Part shown: in pieces, positions 26,763 to 51,146 of the stretch | Position numbering within the stretch: position 1 is the stretch's first letter | Layout of the letters: the number at the start of each line of letters is the position of its first letter | NCBI GenBank assembly: GCA_947491545.1 | Contig: CANLJX010000002.1 | Span: forward strand, 9,147-73,146 | From: Deltaproteobacteria bacterium | GTDB lineage: Bacteria; Bdellovibrionota_C; UBA2361; OMII01 | Direction: 5' to 3' | Length of the DNA stretch: 64,000 nucleotides | Position numbers and translations under genes: made by a program | Notes under the pieces: model-generated | The model's database searches: none | Told to the model about the DNA's origin: nothing | What the model saw: the letters and a program-made list of their open reading frames with translations, nothing else

Positions 26763-26835
<73 letters not shown>

Positions 26836-29884: not shown

Positions 29885-29906
<22 letters not shown>
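29675..29906 (-). repeat. 70-bp direct repeat (x2, 162-bp spacing) containing the tRNA(CAT) 3' end
   Basis: GCTCCCTGGTTCAAGTCCAGAAGCGGCATTATGGGGGATTACTTGGAGTGGCCCCACCTGGACTTGAACC occurs at 29675-29744 and 29837-29906. Confidence 0.9.

Positions 29907-29910
<4 letters not shown>
29840..29910. repeat. 17-bp perfect inverted repeat of the tRNA T arm
   Basis: CCCTGGTTCAAGTCCAG (29840-29856) and CTGGACTTGAACCAGGG (29894-29910, part of the intact tRNA), with a 37-bp spacer. Confidence 0.85.
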
Positions 29911-30212
<302 letters not shown>

Positions 30213-31109: not shown

Positions 31110-31478
31110 GGGAGGAGTTGAGCGGATGGTCGCTTGGGGGCAACCCTGAGAGGAAAGTCGGGACTTCATAGGGCGGGTTGGCCGCTAACGGCGGCGCCGG
31201 GTGACCGGCGGAAAGTGCCACAGAAAAGAAGACGGCCTGCTCCTGAAAAGGGGCGGGAATCGGTGAAACGGTGAGGTAAAAGCTCACCAGCACGGGGGTG
31301 ACTCCGTGGCTTGGTAAACCCCAGCTGAAGCAAGACCGAATAGGAAGGCTCCCTGCGGCAACGCAGGCGGCGCGGCTCGCGCCGGGCCTTCGGGTAGCGT
31401 CGCTTGAGCCAGTCGGCAACGGCTGGCCCAGATGAATGGCCATCGAAACAGAATCCCGCTTACTGCTCGACTCTTCCC
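31110..31478 (+). ncRNA. rnpB: RNase P RNA, bacterial type A
   Basis: Conserved blocks GAGGAAAGTCGGGAC, GTGCCACAGAAAAG, GGTGAAACGGTGAGGTAAAAGCTCACC, GGTAAACCCC and ACAGAATCCCGCTTAC. P1 pairing is GGGAGGAGTTGAGC with GCTCGACTCTTCCC. Confidence 0.9.
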
Positions 31479-43860: not shown

Positions 43861-44445
43861 TCAAGGTGCGCGCATTGAGGCGAGCTTAGAGTAGCGTGAG
43901 CCGCCCTCCGTTGGCTCCGAGCTGAACAGATCAACGGCACATACTGTAAGCTGTTCTGGGGGGATAGCGACTGCGGACAGCAGCTCCCGAGCGCCTCGAA
44001 GAGCCTCTGCGTCTCGAGCTCGGCCGAGTGTGATGTGTATCACCAGATCTTCCTGGGATGGTGTTATGCCGAAGGGGGCAAGGGTCGCGTCGACATGCTC
44101 TTCAAGGGTGCGCCATGAGCCGGAGGCGACCTCCGCCCCAGCCCACAAGATCCGCTCAGGGCCTTGATTGGGGAAGCAGCCGCAGCGCGTTAGCTGCAAC
44201 GTTGGCAGCGAGCCCGTGAGTGGTCGCGAGCCCCAGGAGCGGACTAGCTCGCCTACGCTCTCCTGCTTAAAGCTGCCGATAAAGCGCACGGTAGCGTGCA
44301 GGTTCTCTGGCAGCATCCACCGAACGCCGCTTGGAAAGCGTCGCATGAGCTTGCGTTGCAGCGCACTCAGCGCAGAGATCCAGCTTTCTGGCAGGGAGAC
44401 CGCAGCGAAGAGGCGCACCGTTTTTGGTTCGCTCGACCGCTGCAT
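43861..44445 (-). CDS. thpR: RNA 2',3'-cyclic phosphodiesterase (2H family, ThpR/LigT)
   Basis: Two HxT/Sx motifs: HATVRF and HITLGR. Confidence 0.8.
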   Translation of the reverse strand: MQRSSEPKTVRLFAAVSLPESWISALSALQRKLMRRFPSGVRWMLPENLHATVRFIGSFKQESVGELVRSWGSRPLTGSLPTLQLTRCGCFPNQGPERILWAGAEVASGSWRTLEEHVDATLAPFGITPSQEDLVIHITLGRARDAEALRGARELLSAVAIPPEQLTVCAVDLFSSEPTEGGSRYSKLASMRAP

Positions 44446-44453
44446 AGAAGGCT

Positions 44454-45782
44454 CTACTGGGGACCAGGCGACTCTACGACTGCGAGACCAGCCTCACGCA
44501 GTACTCGCCAGAAGGTTGGGAAAGACTTCTCAACGACGTGCGGCTCCTGAATCACGAGGTTCGCGATACGCGCACCCAGGATCGCAAACGACATCGCCAT
44601 GCGGTGGTCGTCGTAGGTGGCGATAGAGGCAGCGTGCGGCTCTCCGCCGTGCACCACGATGTAGTCTGGGCCAGGCTCGCTCGTTATCCCAAGCTTCGAG
44701 AGCTCGGTGTGCAGGGCAGCGATTCGGTCGGTCTCCTTCACGCGCAGCGTGCTTAGTCCTGTAATTCTAGTCTTACCCTTCGCAACGGCGGCGATTACAG
44801 CCAGCGTTTGCGCAGTGTCGGGCATGTTTGACATGTCGGCGTCGATGCCGAGCAGGGCAGGGGTGCCGGTGACCGTGACAGATCGCTCGCCTAGCGAGAC
44901 AGCACACCCCATCTGGGCTAGAAGCTGCGGGAACTGCACGTCGCCCTGAGCGGAGTGTGGGTTGATGTTGTGCACTGTGACCGTGCCTCCAGACACAGCC
45001 GCTAGGCCCCAGAGGTACGAAGCTCCAGAAGCGTCGCCCTCCACGTGATACTCCCGCGCCTGGAAACGTCCGCCATCGGTGCTGTAGGAACGATAGCCGT
45101 TGTTCCTGAACACAACTCCGAAATCAGCCACGCTCTGCAAGGTCATGTCTATGTACGACTTGGAGATCTGCTCGCCCTTGACCTGTACAGAGAGGGGCTG
45201 AGCATGCATCGGCGCTGTGAGGAGCAGGGCCGAGATAAACTGGCTGCTGACTGAGCCGTCGACTGTGACGGTGCCGCCCCGAAGCGGCTGCGGCGAGTGA
45301 ATTCGAAGTGGCGGGCAGCCAGGTGAGCCGAGGTAGTCGATCTCTGCTCCGAGCGAGCGCAGCGCTTCCACTAGCTCTCGGATCGGCCGAGCGTGCATCC
45401 GCTCCGTGCCGCGCAGGGTAATGTCAGCGCCTCGTATGCCGGCGCACAGGGCTGTCAGGAAGCGCATCGTCGTGCCGGCTGGCCCGACGTCGATCTCTCC
45501 CTTGAGAGGGGTGAAGCCGCCGCCTTGGCCCTCCACAACGAACACGTCGCTCCCTCCTTCTTTCTCCTCTCGCACCGTTACGCCAAGTTTCCGTAGCGCT
45601 GCAGCCATCGCCTCGCTGTCTGTGCTTGCAGAGGCCTGGTAAAGCCGGGAAACGCCCTCAGCCTGGGCTGCCATCAGCAGTGCTCGGTTCGTGTAGCTCT
45701 TTGAGCCAGGGATTGTTACTTCAGCGTGCAGTCGCGCCGAGGAAGAGGGAGATACGGAGAGATCACGCATGACGGCCTGCAC
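44454..45782 (-). CDS. aroA: 3-phosphoshikimate 1-carboxyvinyltransferase (EPSP synthase)
   Basis: IPGSKSYTNRALLMAAQAEG, LRVKETDRI, DDHRMAMSFAILG. Confidence 0.92.
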   Translation of the reverse strand: MQAVMRDLSVSPSSSARLHAEVTIPGSKSYTNRALLMAAQAEGVSRLYQASASTDSEAMAAALRKLGVTVREEKEGGSDVFVVEGQGGGFTPLKGEIDVGPAGTTMRFLTALCAGIRGADITLRGTERMHARPIRELVEALRSLGAEIDYLGSPGCPPLRIHSPQPLRGGTVTVDGSVSSQFISALLLTAPMHAQPLSVQVKGEQISKSYIDMTLQSVADFGVVFRNNGYRSYSTDGGRFQAREYHVEGDASGASYLWGLAAVSGGTVTVHNINPHSAQGDVQFPQLLAQMGCAVSLGERSVTVTGTPALLGIDADMSNMPDTAQTLAVIAAVAKGKTRITGLSTLRVKETDRIAALHTELSKLGITSEPGPDYIVVHGGEPHAASIATYDDHRMAMSFAILGARIANLVIQEPHVVEKSFPTFWRVLREAGLAVVESPGPQ

Positions 45783-46863
45783 CGGGTTGAATTAGCTCTA
45801 GCGCCTCTGAGAGGAGGGGTTCGCTGACGGTTCTGTCAAAGACCGACCGGCCAACCGCCTCAAGCAGGGCTAGCCGTAGCTCAGAGCCGACGTTCTTCTT
45901 GTCGCGGGTCATAAGGGAGCGCAACGCTGCGGGCGGCATTGCTGTGGGGAGAGAGACCGGCAGCCCTGCACGAGCGATTCCGTCTCTGGCACGCAGGAAG
46001 CACTGCTCTGAGATGAGCCCCGATCTCCACGAGAGGAACGATTCCCCGGCCATGCCAACGGCGACTGCCTCACCGTGGGTAAGAGAGATGCCGTGGTTGA
46101 GCGCATAGCTCTCGGCTGCGTGGCCGATTGAGTGCCCGAAGTTGAGGGTTTTGCGAAGCCCCTGCTCAGTCTCGTCTGCTTCAACAACCGCTTTCTTTAT
46201 CTCGCACGAGCGAAAGATGATCTCCGCAAGCTCATCGGCGCTCCACTCGGAGCAGTCACGCGAGGAGACGCGCTCAAAGTACGCGGCGTCAGCGATCAGT
46301 CCGTGCTTCAGAATCTCGGCGAAACCGGAGCGAATCTCGCGTGCTGGCAGGGTAGAGAGAGTGTCGACATCGACCACGATCCCAACCGGCTGCATTATCG
46401 AGCCGAGCAGGTTCTTCACCCCCATGAAGTTAATCCCAGTCTTACCGCCGATGCTGGCGTCCACCTGCGCAAGCAGGGTCGTCGGGACGTGCACGAACGG
46501 GATGCCCCGCATGTACGTTGCAGCAGCGAAGCCTGCCAGGTCGCTCAGCGCCCCGCCACCTGCTGTCACAACTAACGAGCGGCGGTCGAGCTTCTGCTCA
46601 ACGAAGAAGCGCCAGAGCGCCTCTAGCCCAGCTGTGTCCTTCATGCGCTCGCCGCCAGGGAGCAGGAGGGACCGGCTCTCTGGGAGCTTGAGCGCCGAGA
46701 GGATACGCGACACGGCGGACTTTGCCCCGTCGTCAGCCACAACCACGATCGAGGAGTAGCGAGTCGGCTCCACGAGGGTAGGGAGCTGCTCAAGGAGCCG
46801 CCTCCCTACCCAAAGTGGGGAGCAGCGCTCTACTCGCGCAACCTGGACTGTGAGCTGCTTCAT
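45763..46863 (-). CDS. aroB: 3-dehydroquinate synthase
   Basis: [54 protein letters not shown]. Confidence 0.92.
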
Positions 46864-48989
46864 GCCGATACCTGAATCTTTCGCAGGTCATCCATGAGCT
46901 TCTCAAACTGCGGGAAGAGCAGCGCCTGAGGCCCGTCACTGAGCGCCTTCTCCGGCTCCGGATGGAACTCCACGATGATGCCATCAGCACCAACCGCCTT
47001 GGCTGCCAGTGCGAGCGGGATGACGAGATCCCTAACGCCGGCGGCGTGCGACGGGTCGATGAACACCGGAAGGTGGGTGCGCTTCTTGAGCACCGGCACC
47101 GCACTGATGTCGAGTGTGCCACGGGTAGCAGTCTCGAAGGTTCGGATGCCGCGCTCACACAGGAACACCTGCTGGTTTCCGCCCGCGAGGATGTACTCAG
47201 TCGCCTGCAGCACCTCCTCAATCGATGAGCTCATGCCACGCTTTAGCATTACTGGGCGCCGGATCTGTCCAACCGCCTTGAGCAAGCTAAAGTTCTGCAT
47301 GTTGCGCGCGCCGATCTGGATGATGTCAGCCTTCTCAGCCACGCGCTCAACATCCTCAGTCGTCATGACCTCGGTTATGACCGGCATTCCGACCGAGCGT
47401 CCTGCCTCAACCAGCAGGTCGAGCCCCTCGTATCCCATGCCCTGGAAACTGTACGGCGAGGTGCGCGGCTTGAACACGCCACCACGCAGGATCTTCGCCC
47501 CATGGTTGCGGGCCTGCCTGGCGCACGACATGATCTGATCGCGCGACTCAACCGAGCAGGGACCGGCGATGACAAGGAAGTTTCCGTCGCCTATCTTTAC
47601 GCCACCCACGTCAATGACGGTGTTAGTTGGCTTGTGCTCGCGAGTCACGAGCCTGTATCCCTTGTCTTTTCCTCCGGCAGGCTTCGGAGCAGTAGGCTCC
47701 TTGACCTCGACCGGGCAGGCTGCCGGCTCTGGCTGGCTCGCCGCAGCGGCTTCGGCTGAATCAACCAGGGTCGGCTGGACATCACAGGCAGGGAAGCACC
47801 CGAGCACCTTGATGAAGCGCACGAGCTTGGTCAGCTCGGCGATGGCCGCCTTGGAAGCTTCCGAGTCTAGGTTTCCGGCGAAATCGATGTAGAACATCTC
47901 TTCCCAGGAGTTTCCTGGCACCGGACGGCTCTCAAGCTTTGTGAGGTTGATGCCGTGGCTCTTGAACACGCTCAACGCCTCGACGAGCGCCCCGGGCTTG
48001 TCGAGCGTGTGCACCACGATCGCAGTCTTGCTCGGTATGCGCTGGTCAACCTTGCGCGGCTGCTTCGCAATCACGATGAAGCGCGTGAAGTTCTCCTCCT
48101 GGCTTGCGATCTGTCGCTTCAAGACAGTCAGCCCAAACATCTCAGCCGCTTCCGAGCTAGCGATCGCAGCCTCGGTCGCGCCGCCCTGGCGAGCGCGCTT
48201 TGCGCCGATTGCGGAGTCAACCGCAAACTCAACGCGGCACTCAGGCAGCGAAGCAAGGAACGATGCGCATTCTGATACTGCGAGCGGAGTAGCGTAGATG
48301 CGCTCAAGGTGAGATATCGACGCGCCCGCCGTGCCGACTAGGCAGGGGCTCGTGCTTACCTTCTCTTCTCCCACGATAGAGACGCGCGAGTTGAGCAGCA
48401 GGTCGTACACCTCGTTTATCCCGCCAGAGGTCGTATTCTCAATCGGCAGCACGGCGTAGTCGCAGCTGCCCGACTCAACCGCGCGCACGGCCTCTAGGTG
48501 AGTTGGGAAGCCGACGAACGTCGGCTCCGAGCCGCGAGCTGAGGACTGAGAGCCAGGGGAGGAGAGAAAGCTCCTGCCTGCAAGGTGGCAGAAGGACCCC
48601 TCGATCCCGCGGAAGGCGACCTTGGTAGAGCTGCTTAGCAGCGCAGAGCCGTTCAGGCGCGCCTGCAGGTAGTCTTGCTGAGTGCGAACTCCTTCGGCGA
48701 TTACCTCGTGAAAAACGCTCGTCACAAACTGCGGGTCGAGGCCCAAGGTGCGGCCCTCCGAGATGCGCTGCCGCAGCAGCTGCTCCTCGCGCGAGATGTC
48801 GCGCACGGCGCTCCTCTGCTCGTCTTTTGCTTCTGCCACCTGCACAGTCAGCGACTTGCGCTGCGCCAGGAGCGAGAGGATCTCGTTGTCTAGCTTGTCG
48901 ATCTCTGAGCGAATGCCTGAAATCTCTGGGGATGTTTTCTCGTTTGTTGCCATAACTTCTGTGCTCCTAAAATTCTGTGCCTCTGCCAT
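46860..48989 (-). CDS. Multidomain fusion: chorismate mutase (AroQ) - prephenate dehydratase - ACT - type Ibeta DAHP synthase
   Basis: CM domain: [25 protein letters not shown] domain: [14 protein letters not shown]...[21 protein letters not shown] domain: [36 protein letters not shown] Pro/Ala linker follows. DAHPS domain: [15 protein letters not shown]...[19 protein letters not shown]...[10 protein letters not shown]. Confidence 0.88.
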
Positions 48990-49900
48990 TACTGCCGATT
49001 CTCAACGAAGGTGAGGAACCTTCGATACGCCGCAGTGCGGCCACGCACCGCATCGAGGTACGCTGACTTAATCTCAAGCGACACCGGGCCCGGCTTGCCG
49101 TTGCCGAGCATCTGGTCGTTGATGATTCCGATAGGCGTGATCTCGCACGCCGTTCCGGAGAAGAACGCCTCGTCTGCTGTTACCGCTTCGGCAAGAGAGA
49201 GCGGGCGCTCGGTAACCGCAAAGCCGCGCTCGCTGGCGATCTCAAGCACCGTGGCGCGCGTTATGCCAGCCAGGATCGCCCCGAGTGGGGGAGTGAGGAT
49301 CTCGCGGTTCTTCACCATGAAGAAGTTCTCGCCCGGCCCCTCGGCGATATTGCCGTTTGAGTCGAGGAAGAGCGCCTCGTCGTACTTCGTGCCGCGCAGC
49401 TCCAGGATCGCCATGATGCTGTTGACGTAGTGACCACAGATCTTGGCATCCGCGACGGTCGAGTCTGGGTGTATGCGGATAAACCTGCTGACCTTGATGT
49501 TGGCAGCTTCCACCGGCAGGTACGCGCCCCACGGCCAGCAAGCGATGATGAGCTGCACCGGTGAGTTGCGCGGGTTAACCCCCATCACGCCGTAGCCGTG
49601 AATTGCGAGAGGGCGAACGTACCCTTCTTCGAGCTTGTTGGCGCGCAACGTGTCGCAGATGGCGGTGCATACCTGCGCTGGAGCGTAGGGCAGCTCCATG
49701 CCGAGAGCCTGAGCAGAGTAGAAGAGGCGGTCGACGTGCTCGGTCAAGCGGAAGACGGCCGGCCCCTGGTCAGTCTTGTAGGCGCGGATGCCTTCGAAGG
49801 CCCCATCTCCGTAGTGGAGCGAGTGCGCCAGGACGTGCACCTTCGCGTCAGCCCATGGCACGAGCTTTCCGTCCATCCAGATACTTTCAGTCTCTTGCAT
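48989..49900 (-). CDS. ilvE: Branched-chain-amino-acid aminotransferase (class IV)
   Basis: [35 protein letters not shown]...; GAGENFFMV-type motif [14 protein letters not shown] stop/start overlap with the next gene. Confidence 0.9.
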
Positions 49901-49933
49901 CTTCGAAACTCCTCAGTCGTGTCTTCAAAGCAC

Positions 49934-49964
49934 AAAAAAAAAGGCCCCGCGAAACCGCAGAGCC
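49934..49964 (-). terminator. Intrinsic terminator in the ilvE leader (attenuator)
   Basis: Minus strand GGCTCTGC-GGTTTC-GCGGGGCC (8-bp stem including 2 G:U) followed by T9. It ends ~33 nt before the ilvE ATG. Confidence 0.6.
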
Positions 49965-49996
49965 TCCTAATCCAGTAAACACCGGCGCTCTGCCCC

Positions 49997-50041
49997 CTAT
50001 GAGCCTCTAAAGTAGAAAAGCGGGAACGCGCGGTTGTTCAT
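49997..50041 (-). CDS. Candidate attenuator leader peptide MNNRAFPLFYFRGS (3 Phe + 1 Tyr in 14 aa)
   Basis: Not in ORF track (too short). ATG 50041, TAG 49999-49997. It lies between a candidate promoter and an intrinsic terminator, directly upstream of the ilvE-Phe/shikimate operon. Confidence 0.5.
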   Translation of the reverse strand: MNNRAFPLFYFRGS

Positions 50042-50047
50042 ACAGGC

Positions 50048-50076
50048 AACTTAGCGGGGCAGGGACCTAAAAGCAA
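50048..50076 (-). promoter_or_regulatory. Candidate sigma70-type promoter for the leader/ilvE operon
   Basis: Minus strand TTGCTT-17 nt-TAAGTT, ending 6 nt before the leader ATG. This implies a leaderless or near-leaderless leader-peptide mRNA, consistent with the absent SD. Confidence 0.3.
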
Positions 50077-50108
50077 GAGAGGGAGCGCTTAGGCTCCCTC
50101 TCTTGCTT
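50071..50108 (-). terminator. Intrinsic terminator of the upstream secreted-protein gene
   Basis: Perfect 16-bp stem AAGCAAGAGAGGGAGC / GCTCCCTCTCTTGCTT with a 6-nt loop, followed on the minus strand by TT(A). Confidence 0.6.
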
Positions 50109-50130
50109 TACAGGGAATTTCCTCGCGGAG

Positions 50131-50673
50131 TTACAGCGCGTTGCCAGTACGACCGAGTGGGCGGACCTTGTAGCAGGCCGTGTTGCCGGCAGTCTTTCTT
50201 GTCTGCAAGTAGACGAAGCCGTCGCGGCCACCGCGCCTCGAGGTCCTATAGATCTGGTTTATGAAGCACTGCGGTGCGCCACCCGCTGCACAGTATGCAC
50301 GAGCCTTTCCGGTCACGTTCCAGGCGCCGTAGTAACCAACCAGACCGGCGAGGGTTCCATCGGAGTAGTAGAATGCCATTGGGAACTTCGGGCATATCTG
50401 GTTGCAGATGAAGGTTGGGCCCGTGGCACGCGGGTCGCCCGGATTGATGTGGTTCGAGATCTCTGACTTCCACAGGAACTCGCGGCCGGTTACCTGCCGG
50501 ATCGTGCCGCAAACATTGGACAGGTTGGCAACGCCAGCAGTCGGGTCTCCGGCACGGGACATCCTTTGCAGTGAGCGAGTGCTCAAACCGTCCTGAGCCT
50601 GAGACGATACCGGCGCGAAAGCGATTGCCGCGAGAACGAGGACTGAGCAGATACGAGCAGCCTTGGTGAGCAT
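50131..50673 (-). CDS. Secreted hypothetical protein
   Basis: ORF 50131..50763. Start at MLTKAARICSVLVLAAIAFAPVSSQAQ (signal peptide). 8 Cys in the mature part. Confidence 0.5.
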   Translation of the reverse strand: MLTKAARICSVLVLAAIAFAPVSSQAQDGLSTRSLQRMSRAGDPTAGVANLSNVCGTIRQVTGREFLWKSEISNHINPGDPRATGPTFICNQICPKFPMAFYYSDGTLAGLVGYYGAWNVTGKARAYCAAGGAPQCFINQIYRTSRRGGRDGFVYLQTRKTAGNTACYKVRPLGRTGNAL

Positions 50674-51146
50674 TGTGACACCCTTTGTTTTAACCACGTT
50701 TACGTTGAGCGGGTAGCGCCTCGTGAGCGTGCTACCCTGCGGAGCGTCCGGTTCGTTTGCCACTTCGTCCAGTAACCCGACACCCAGGTGACCGGCGAAT
50801 TCCCCTGTGGGAAACGGATGCGCCCTATCTCTCTAATGTACTGGCACCGGTACAGCCCTGCAAGGCTAAGATCCTGCGACCCTTAGGAGCGTATTAAACG
50901 AAGAATTATTGCTGGAGACAAATCGCGCCCACCGGCTCCGGCAATGTGCCGTACGAACTAGCGAAATTTGAGATGACGCGCCGTATCCTCGAATGAGTAT
51001 TAGGAGGCTGCAAAACGGTTTTAGCCTGCTGTTTTCGCCTGAGAGGGGAGATGAAGGGGCAAGTTCCTGTCCTGAAACAAAAAGAGGTCCCAGCTCGCTT
51101 ATCCGTTGTCCTTAGACAACAGACCGGGCCTCAAGCCCTGCGAGGC

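Follow-up and report, generated by a model that had tools for sequence, protein, structure and literature searches.

What controls the operon for aromatic amino acid biosynthesis carried by a 64,000-nucleotide (nt) stretch of contig CANLJX010000002.1 (assembly GCA_947491545.1; hereafter, the window), which belongs to an uncultured Bdellovibrionota bacterium? Between the terminator of the preceding gene and the start codon of ilvE, the first gene of the operon, the minus strand carries a short element (49934-50076) in which the original prediction, made from the letters of this stretch, had recognized a Phe/Tyr-rich leader peptide and an intrinsic terminator, and for which it proposed attenuation of the pheA type. 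This proposal gains support from the conservation of the element among relatives, the position of the leader stop codon next to a conserved box, RNA folds that switch with ribosome position, and leader codons that match the downstream operon. Judging from these sequence comparisons, the element is probably a classical ribosome-mediated (leader-peptide) transcription attenuator of the aromatic operon, a reading to which we assign a probability of about 85%, and a shortage of Phe- or Tyr-tRNA very probably turns on this operon.

The promoter, 14-codon open reading frame (ORF), GCAGAGC segment, hairpin, nine T and GAGGAG motif that had been predicted were all located on the minus strand where they had been placed. 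From 5' to 3', the leader region comprises the following features:

50069-50108, minus strand: terminator of the upstream gene (hairpin 50106-50073 followed by Ts), the 5' boundary of the regulatory unit
50071-50076, minus strand: -35-like hexamer TTGCTT, located in the upstream terminator (3' arm and T-run)
Minus strand: 17-nt spacer from TTGCTT to TAAGTT
50048-50053, minus strand: -10-like hexamer TAAGTT, 6 nt 5' of the leader ATG
49997-50041, minus strand: ORF of the leader peptide MNNRAFPLFYFRGS, 14 codons plus TAG, with its ATG at 50041
50009-50026, minus strand: codon cluster TTC-CCG-CTT-TTC-TAC-TTT (F-P-L-F-Y-F), the proposed stall site when Phe-tRNA or Tyr-tRNA is scarce
49987-49993, minus strand: region 2, GCAGAGC, 5' strand of the putative antiterminator, starting 4 nt after the leader stop
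49972-49985, minus strand: inner hairpin CCGGT-GTTT-ACTGG, enclosed by the antiterminator helix
49957-49963, minus strand: region 3, GCTCTGC, paired with region 2 in the putative antiterminator and with region 4 in the terminator
49934-49968, minus strand: intrinsic terminator, a 13-base-pair (bp) stem AGGAGGCTCTGCG / CGCGGGGCCTTTT with loop GTTT, then nine T
49909-49914, minus strand: Shine-Dalgarno sequence GAGGAG of ilvE, 3' of the terminator and not sequestered by it

The leader ORF reads ATG AAC AAC CGC GCG TTC CCG CTT TTC TAC TTT AGA GGC TCA TAG, and an in-frame TAA lies four codons 5' of its ATG, so that the ATG at 50041 is the first possible leader start. The core hairpin of the terminator is GGCTCTGC-GGTTTC-GCGGGGCC, which a terminator scan lengthened to the 13-bp stem (49968-49939); the nine-T run occupies 49942-49934, and the end of the terminator is separated from the ilvE ATG by 33 nt. 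This terminator (-19.6 kcal/mol) forms in the minimum-energy fold of the region. An AGGAGG motif in its 5' arm was considered as a hidden Shine-Dalgarno sequence and rejected, as no start codon follows it and it is not conserved outside three loci (L001-L003).

The strongest evidence that such an element acts as an attenuator, not foreseen in the original prediction, is the correspondence between leader codons and the operon that follows, since leaders carried by one RNA scaffold were found in front of both aromatic and leucine operons. In 23 unique leaders located 5' of ilvE or of the gene for the chorismate mutase / prephenate dehydratase / DAHP synthase fusion (CM-PDT-DAHPS), Phe, Tyr and Trp (F/Y/W) account for 33% of the pooled residues, compared with 7.6% in the long ORFs of the genome, and Leu, Ile and Val (L/I/V) for 12%, whereas in 15 leaders on the same scaffold before leuA or leuC these proportions are 11% and 36%, respectively. 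F/Y/W exceeds L/I/V in 20/23 of the aromatic-operon leaders and in 0/15 of the leu-operon leaders (Mann-Whitney P ~1e-6, a value that overstates independence, the sequences being related), and when whole peptide families are compared, each leader type goes with its operon type without exception. The leaders before leuA or leuC include MQLxRLxYLFxLVVRPS, MTVSAVGYIFILVVGP, MTHHALHTLEGLLRATS and MYGIKMNSVTTSLLLSLLTTSY, and SLLLSLL and LLLLL runs occur among such leaders. Several species carry an aromatic leader directly before the CM-PDT-DAHPS gene, with ilvE absent; thus, the leader tracks the aromatic genes. Furthermore, in three genomes (G070, G003 and G013) the one scaffold carries both leader types, and leaders that combine L/V with Y/F occur where a single operon runs leuACDB-ilvE-CM-PDT.

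The Phe/Tyr-rich character claimed for the window leader extends to its orthologues, which retain an aromatic bias in spite of changes in sequence. In nearly all of the 75 scaffold loci a short ATG ORF, mostly of 14-17 codons, ends at a GGCAG box, and in nearly all copies its stop codon, which may be TAG, TAA or TGA, lies 0-4 nt before this box, mostly no more than ~1 nt away from it. The aromatic leader peptides belong to at least seven unrelated sequence families (for instance MNxRAFPFFYFRGS, MNRSFAYFFSYVAQPF, MKVLRNTFYFVFTYRP, MKALSYFFYFFSGMP and MLPAFSYFYSYFFAPPT); peptide sequence drifts, and the conserved part is the aromatic content alone. The F/Y/W enrichment is limited to the leader reading frame, and the changes seen within the window family are either synonymous or aromatic-keeping (Pro CCG/CCC/CCT, Phe TTC/TTT, Arg AGA/CGA, Leu-to-Phe CTT-to-TTT, stop TAG/TAA). 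This frame-specific bias, together with the synonymous changes, suggests that the leader is translated. Two aromatic leaders read through the GGCAGAGGC box and stop 12-16 nt later (MNPQAFPYFYTYFFMPPVRGRG, MTNASLSYFFSYYFFEPPCKAEAR; loci L083/L103 of genome G077 and L087 of G011), and reflect either a divergent geometry or a homopolymer indel of the metagenome-assembled genomes (MAGs).

Conservation of the mini-ORF and terminator at orthologous operons had been put forward as a check, and both are kept. When ilvE orthologues were gathered from 40 relatives and re-oriented, 14/24 loci displayed a mini-ORF and terminator directly 5' of ilvE; in the remainder, ilvE follows leuB. A search of 596 Gb of genomes with the pattern GGCAG-N18-34-GGCTCTGC-N6-GCRGGGCC-T5 returned 24 contigs, every one of them part of a MAG of an uncultured freshwater Bdellovibrionota bacterium. 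With a covariance model (R1) derived from 25 unique scaffold sequences, the scaffold was detected in 30-31/35 genomes of the window's genus, with only marginal matches elsewhere in the order and scores of 36-48 bits in the class's other families. The GGCAG box is kept in 25/25 unique sequences and region 3 is identical in every copy, which fits a strand obliged to pair with two partners, across species whose ilvE genes are only ~58-67% identical. Between the T-run and the first structural gene there are 21-70 nt.

The window's own genome has one copy of the scaffold, no second being found with a loose pattern scan, and a crude scan of the same genome for other leader-ORF-plus-terminator modules convincingly recovered this element only. 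Comparison of 49700-50400 with Rfam (cmscan, E up to 10) yielded no leader, T-box or riboswitch family; the sub-threshold matches (mir-627, ctRNA_p42d, suhB and alike) were judged spurious, the microRNA-like ones hitting the hairpin of the upstream terminator. Weak R1 matches were rejected as further attenuators, since most are plain terminators after atpE and other genes, with similar GGCTCC...GGGGCC-T6 stems. One of them, the terminator of the ATP synthase c-subunit gene (GGCTCCACC-GCAA-GGTGGGGCC-T6), scores 29-35 bits with R1 in several genomes of the genus (L086, L090, L091, L093, L095 and L097) and is an annotation false positive.

Region 2 of the window (GCAGAGC) is complementary to region 3 (GCTCTGC), and the helix between the two (2:3) is 95.4% pairable across 25 sequences, compared with 26-53% when the partner is slid. 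The terminator helix (3:4) is 94.7% paired across the same number of sequences; thus both helices are ~95% pairable, versus 26-61% when slid. Nascent-transcript folds, which considered the RNA up to the end of region 3 and assumed a ribosome footprint reaching 13 nt beyond the first A-site base, agree with the antiterminator that had been proposed: where the model places the ribosome decides whether the RNA adopts the antiterminator or the terminator. Stalling at the final aromatic codon of the cluster, which in the window lies at least 18 nt 5' of GCAGAGC, allows the 2:3 helix to form in 25/26 leaders with energies of -11.6 to -21.5 kcal/mol (-13.8 in the window), whereas for a ribosome halted at the stop the 2:3 helix contains 0 pairs in 23/26. 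The terminators range from -15 to -20 kcal/mol across leaders, and the fold energies as a whole resemble those of the trp attenuator in E. coli. An inner hairpin of 3-7 bp is present in nearly all subfamilies, its sequence differing between families, with a mean energy of -5.4 kcal/mol compared with -2.8 kcal/mol for shuffles. In folds of the free RNA, the 5' part of the ORF pairs with region 2 and the terminator forms. Applied unguided to the group of leaders named MKVL/MKAL, RNAalifold predicts the inner hairpin and the terminator together with a 1:2 helix, in which one compensatory pair (UA/CG/UG) is found.

The arrangement TTGnnn-17/18-TAnnnT, followed by 6-9 nt and the ATG, precedes 24/24 unique aromatic leaders, and a Shine-Dalgarno sequence precedes none of these 24. 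A simple sigma-70 consensus scan did not call the leader promoter, because its hexamers match the consensus weakly. In the main MQL-type Leu/Val leaders of the genus the -10 element lies 16-22 nt 5' of the ATG, with a purine-rich stretch between them. The suggestion that the leader is leaderless is thus favored by a conserved promoter geometry and by the missing Shine-Dalgarno sequence, from which we infer a transcript whose first nucleotide is the A of the ATG or one adjacent to it.

Taken together, these findings are consistent with the following course of events. Transcription would begin on the A of the leader ATG or on its neighbor, and a 70S ribosome would translate the 14-codon leader on a leaderless mRNA, presumably in step with the polymerase. 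With ample charged Phe- and Tyr-tRNA, the ribosome would reach the TAG and its footprint would cover GCAGAGC, leaving region 3 (GCUCUGC) free for region 4, and the 13-bp hairpin plus U9 would end transcription ~35 nt before ilvE. When Phe- or Tyr-tRNA is scarce, the ribosome would stall in the F-P-L-F-Y-F cluster, at least 18 nt 5' of GCAGAGC, and region 2 would pair with region 3 upon its emergence, forming 7 bp closed over the inner hairpin (~-14 kcal/mol). Once this antiterminator has formed, the terminator could not form, and the polymerase would read into ilvE, the CM-PDT-DAHPS fusion gene, aroB, aroA and thpR. A response of this kind to Phe and Tyr in vivo is what the leader composition would predict.

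Several observations weigh against this reading. Only for families B, D and a small number of others do full-length equilibrium folds with a stalled ribosome contain the antiterminator, in a long form, and the minimum-energy fold of the window subfamily keeps the terminator despite the stalled ribosome; the model therefore depends on a 7-bp antiterminator that forms kinetically, during transcription. The 2:3 and 3:4 helices are nearly invariant, so that covariation is uninformative either way, and none of the covariation shuffle controls is significant. Of the three pairings considered, 2:3 and 3:4 are feasible in folds, and 1:2 in the window subfamily is no better than in dinucleotide-shuffled ORFs (P = 0.36-0.79); likewise, the MKVL/MKAL group, modelled with five helices, did not differ significantly from shuffles (55/500). 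The window leader considered alone is modestly enriched, with 4 F/Y/W in 13 residues versus 7.6% (binomial P = 0.013). Furthermore, the leaders are related, and counts of unique leaders overstate independence, there being ~7 aromatic and ~6 branched-chain amino acid peptide families. Finally, all the genomes compared are MAGs.

Could the switch be real and nonetheless be set by a trans-acting factor or ligand, with an incidental mini-ORF? Candidates include a protein that binds RNA in the manner of TRAP or PyrR, a small molecule, or, by analogy with T-boxes, an uncharged tRNA, and a bound factor could explain the unusual invariance of the GGCAG...AGGCTCTGC...GCRGGGCC core among species with such divergent ilvE genes. 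The pairing of region 3 with two partners explains this invariance equally well. The space between the leader stop and the terminator (~30 nt, mostly a variable-sequence hairpin) leaves too little room for an aptamer, and Rfam gave no match to a T-box, riboswitch or leader family at E up to 10. Moreover, a trans-acting factor leaves three properties unexplained, namely an ATG ORF of fixed length always ending at the box, an amino-acid bias that is frame-specific and accompanied by synonymous changes, and a bias that turns from F/Y/W to L/I/V according to the operon downstream, over an unaltered RNA core. We consider this explanation highly improbable.

Equally small is the probability that the unit, which possesses its own promoter-like site and a strong terminator, is a stand-alone small gene encoding a hydrophobic peptide or a small RNA (sRNA) acting in trans, with ilvE transcribed from its own promoter or by leak-through. 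Some sRNAs and peptides derived from attenuators do have trans roles, such as rnTrpL/peTrpL in Sinorhizobium (PMC7298713), and a trans role could be additional to attenuation rather than exclusive of it. As a sole function, it is hard to reconcile with a peptide that is not conserved beyond its aromatic content across at least seven unrelated families, or with an element that travels with CM-PDT-DAHPS whether ilvE is present or not and whose T-run lies only 21-70 nt from the first structural gene; the 33-nt spacer of the window yielded no promoter of its own, and the antiterminator complementarity would be purposeless. Least probable of all, and very unlikely on the comparative data, is an ordinary terminator or insulator placed beside that of the upstream gene, with the ORF and the GCAGAGC complementarity arising by chance in a U-rich spacer: R1 does match ordinary terminators after atpE and other genes, and the enrichment of the window leader alone reaches only P = 0.013, yet the upstream gene already has its own strong terminator ~100 nt away, the ORF-box-terminator arrangement is kept in ~31 genomes with different upstream neighbors, the GGCAG box is universal among the 25 unique sequences, and leader type follows operon type without exception at the peptide-family level.

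With ribosome-mediated attenuation as the preferred reading, the genes under control require consideration. NCBIfam assignments back the operon identities originally proposed (ilvE / CM-PDT-DAHPS / aroB / aroA), and the putative controlled operon spans 43861-49900 on the minus strand:

48989-49900, minus strand: ilvE, class IV (branched-chain) aminotransferase, ATG at 49900 (NCBIfam)
46860-48989, minus strand: CM-PDT-ACT-DAHPS fusion of 709 amino acids (aa), chorismate mutase / prephenate dehydratase / DAHP synthase (NCBIfam)
45763-46863, minus strand: aroB (NCBIfam)
44454-45782, minus strand: aroA (NCBIfam)
43861-44445, minus strand: thpR, ThpR-type RNA 2',3'-cyclic phosphodiesterase (NCBIfam)

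The gene order ilvE-fusion-aroB-aroA is kept in relatives. The last gene, thpR, starts 8 nt after aroA and has no obvious link to aromatic biosynthesis; in one relative (L048) it is likewise found 3' of aroA. The window genome retains the shikimate and Phe pathways, and orthologues of leuA, leuC, leuD and leuB were not found in this 84%-complete genome, where only paralogue-level matches (24-25% identity) were detected; the organism may be a leucine auxotroph, or the leu genes may lie in the missing 16%. Because the genome appears to lack leuABCD, the window ilvE is best read as the transaminase that finishes Phe synthesis, and a Phe-forming transaminase activity is established for E. coli IlvE.

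The position of ilvE varies among the species of the genus. Some have it at the end of leuA-leuC-leuD-leuB-ilvE, an order that sometimes runs on into CM-PDT-DAHPS (L049, 945-6545; L051, L034, L041, L033); in others, including the window (48989-49900), it is the first gene of the aromatic operon, and in still others the aromatic operon has no ilvE. An in-frame ilvE-CM-PDT fusion, hinted at by open-frame lengths in G008 and G022, was discarded, as stop codons are present. On the 5' side, the upstream gene is a 210-aa ORF (50131-50763, minus strand; stop codon at 50133-50131) without an NCBIfam match, which is kept together with its strong terminator in the closest relatives (L001-L006); the 3' arm of this terminator doubles as the -35 hexamer of the leader promoter. 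Elsewhere in the window, an Rfam scan at gathering thresholds identified only a class A RNase P RNA (276 bits, 31114-31478, plus strand) and two tRNA genes (26763-26835, plus strand; 29885-29958, minus strand).

Among known systems, the closest analogues are pheL-pheA of E. coli and aroR-aroF of Corynebacterium glutamicum, the latter matching most closely. As in the E. coli and gamma-proteobacterial pheL-pheA system (and the pheST leader), a short leader ORF with clustered Phe codons precedes a chorismate mutase / prephenate dehydratase gene, the stop codon lies beside the putative antiterminator strand, and an antiterminator and a terminator predicted to exclude each other are followed by a U-run. 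In pheL, a Pro codon near the Phe run or the leader end contributes Cs that pair with downstream Gs (PMC3082878), and comparable features are F-P-F-F-Y-F and, in family C, GGCCC-UAA-GGGC. Conversely, no sequence or covariance-model similarity to the Rfam leader families was detected at E up to 10, the leaders described here mix Phe with Tyr and sometimes Trp and appear to be leaderless, whereas those of gamma-proteobacteria have a Shine-Dalgarno sequence, and the operon, hosted by Bdellovibrionota, adds DAHP synthase, aroB, aroA and a class IV aminotransferase. In the summary that PMC11802643 gives of C. glutamicum aroR (Neshat et al. 2014), a leader with Phe-Tyr-Phe precedes the DAHP synthase gene aroF, and read-through is raised by ribosome stalling at Phe/Tyr codons, Phe limitation being reported there to act and Tyr limitation not. 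The window leader (L-F-Y-F) shares this motif and its location before an operon with a DAHP synthase gene; phylum and operon content differ, and the likeness is one of description.

Leaderless leader peptides have been reported in Deinococcus deserti (PMC4007540) and, as poly-Cys small-ORF attenuators, in mycobacteria (bioRxiv 10.1101/834739). They share with our element a -10 element few nt before the AUG and the lack of a Shine-Dalgarno sequence, and their mini-ORF begins at the transcript's 5' end, as ours would; their amino acids, operons and phyla differ, and their starts were mapped, whereas the one proposed here derives from promoter geometry. T-box riboswitches, with a specifier loop, a T-box bulge and a leader of ~200 nt or more, differ from the window element, which has no Rfam T-box match and only ~30 nt between mini-ORF and terminator. 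Attenuators of the E. coli leuL type have Bdellovibrionota relatives that carry the window's scaffold (GGCAGAG/ACAGAG ... GGCTCTG ... CAGGGCC-T9) before leuA or leuC, with Leu-run leaders (SLLLSLL, ALLLLLG, LALLLLD) and Leu/Ile/Val codons instead of Phe/Tyr.

How did one scaffold come to serve two pathways? The aromatic version was found in a single genus, and other families of the class carry weaker scaffold relatives before leuA-leuC-leuD, whose leaders are longer than that of the window (~35 codons) and end in ALLLLLGVPI, LALLLLDSIV or LSLLLLIIKI (L105-L110; genomes G123, G122, G121, G120, G101 and G099). In several of these, the -10 element lies only 6-10 nt before the ATG. The ~35-codon leu attenuators look like the ancestral form, and the scaffold seems to be specific to this genus and derived from a leu-operon attenuator present throughout the class, redirected through a change of leader codons. 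As a possible history, a leu-operon attenuator that is common across this Bdellovibrionota class, its leaders terminating in LLLL(L), would have been duplicated within one genus, or carried along as a leuACDB-ilvE-CM-PDT super-operon split; the derived copy would have kept the GGCAGAG / GGCUCUGC / GCRGGGCC-U9 core and traded its Leu/Val codons for Phe/Tyr(/Trp), and in species with merged operons mixed leaders (L/V plus Y/F) would integrate both signals. That one RNA switch was re-aimed at different amino acids simply by rewriting its leader codons is a proposition on which we place even odds.

The mechanism itself is not new, and our literature search retrieved no report of leader-peptide attenuators in Bdellovibrionota; the element constitutes a well-supported new example, whose RNA family is absent from Rfam. 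On comparative evidence, textbook leader-peptide attenuation would thus operate in this phylum, and the covariance model and the ~38 unique leader sequences can be used for annotating these MAGs. The element also backs the reading of the class IV aminotransferase (ilvE) as a Phe-forming transaminase. Its most interesting aspect is the re-use of the scaffold for Leu/Val and Phe/Tyr sensing: the two versions, sometimes present in the same genome, offer a natural system for asking whether attenuator specificity is set by codons only, as well as for the study of regulation under operon fusion and fission, and, if the proposed codon rewriting is true, they would show by a natural example that the specificity of an attenuator is modular and can evolve through codon substitutions and nothing else.

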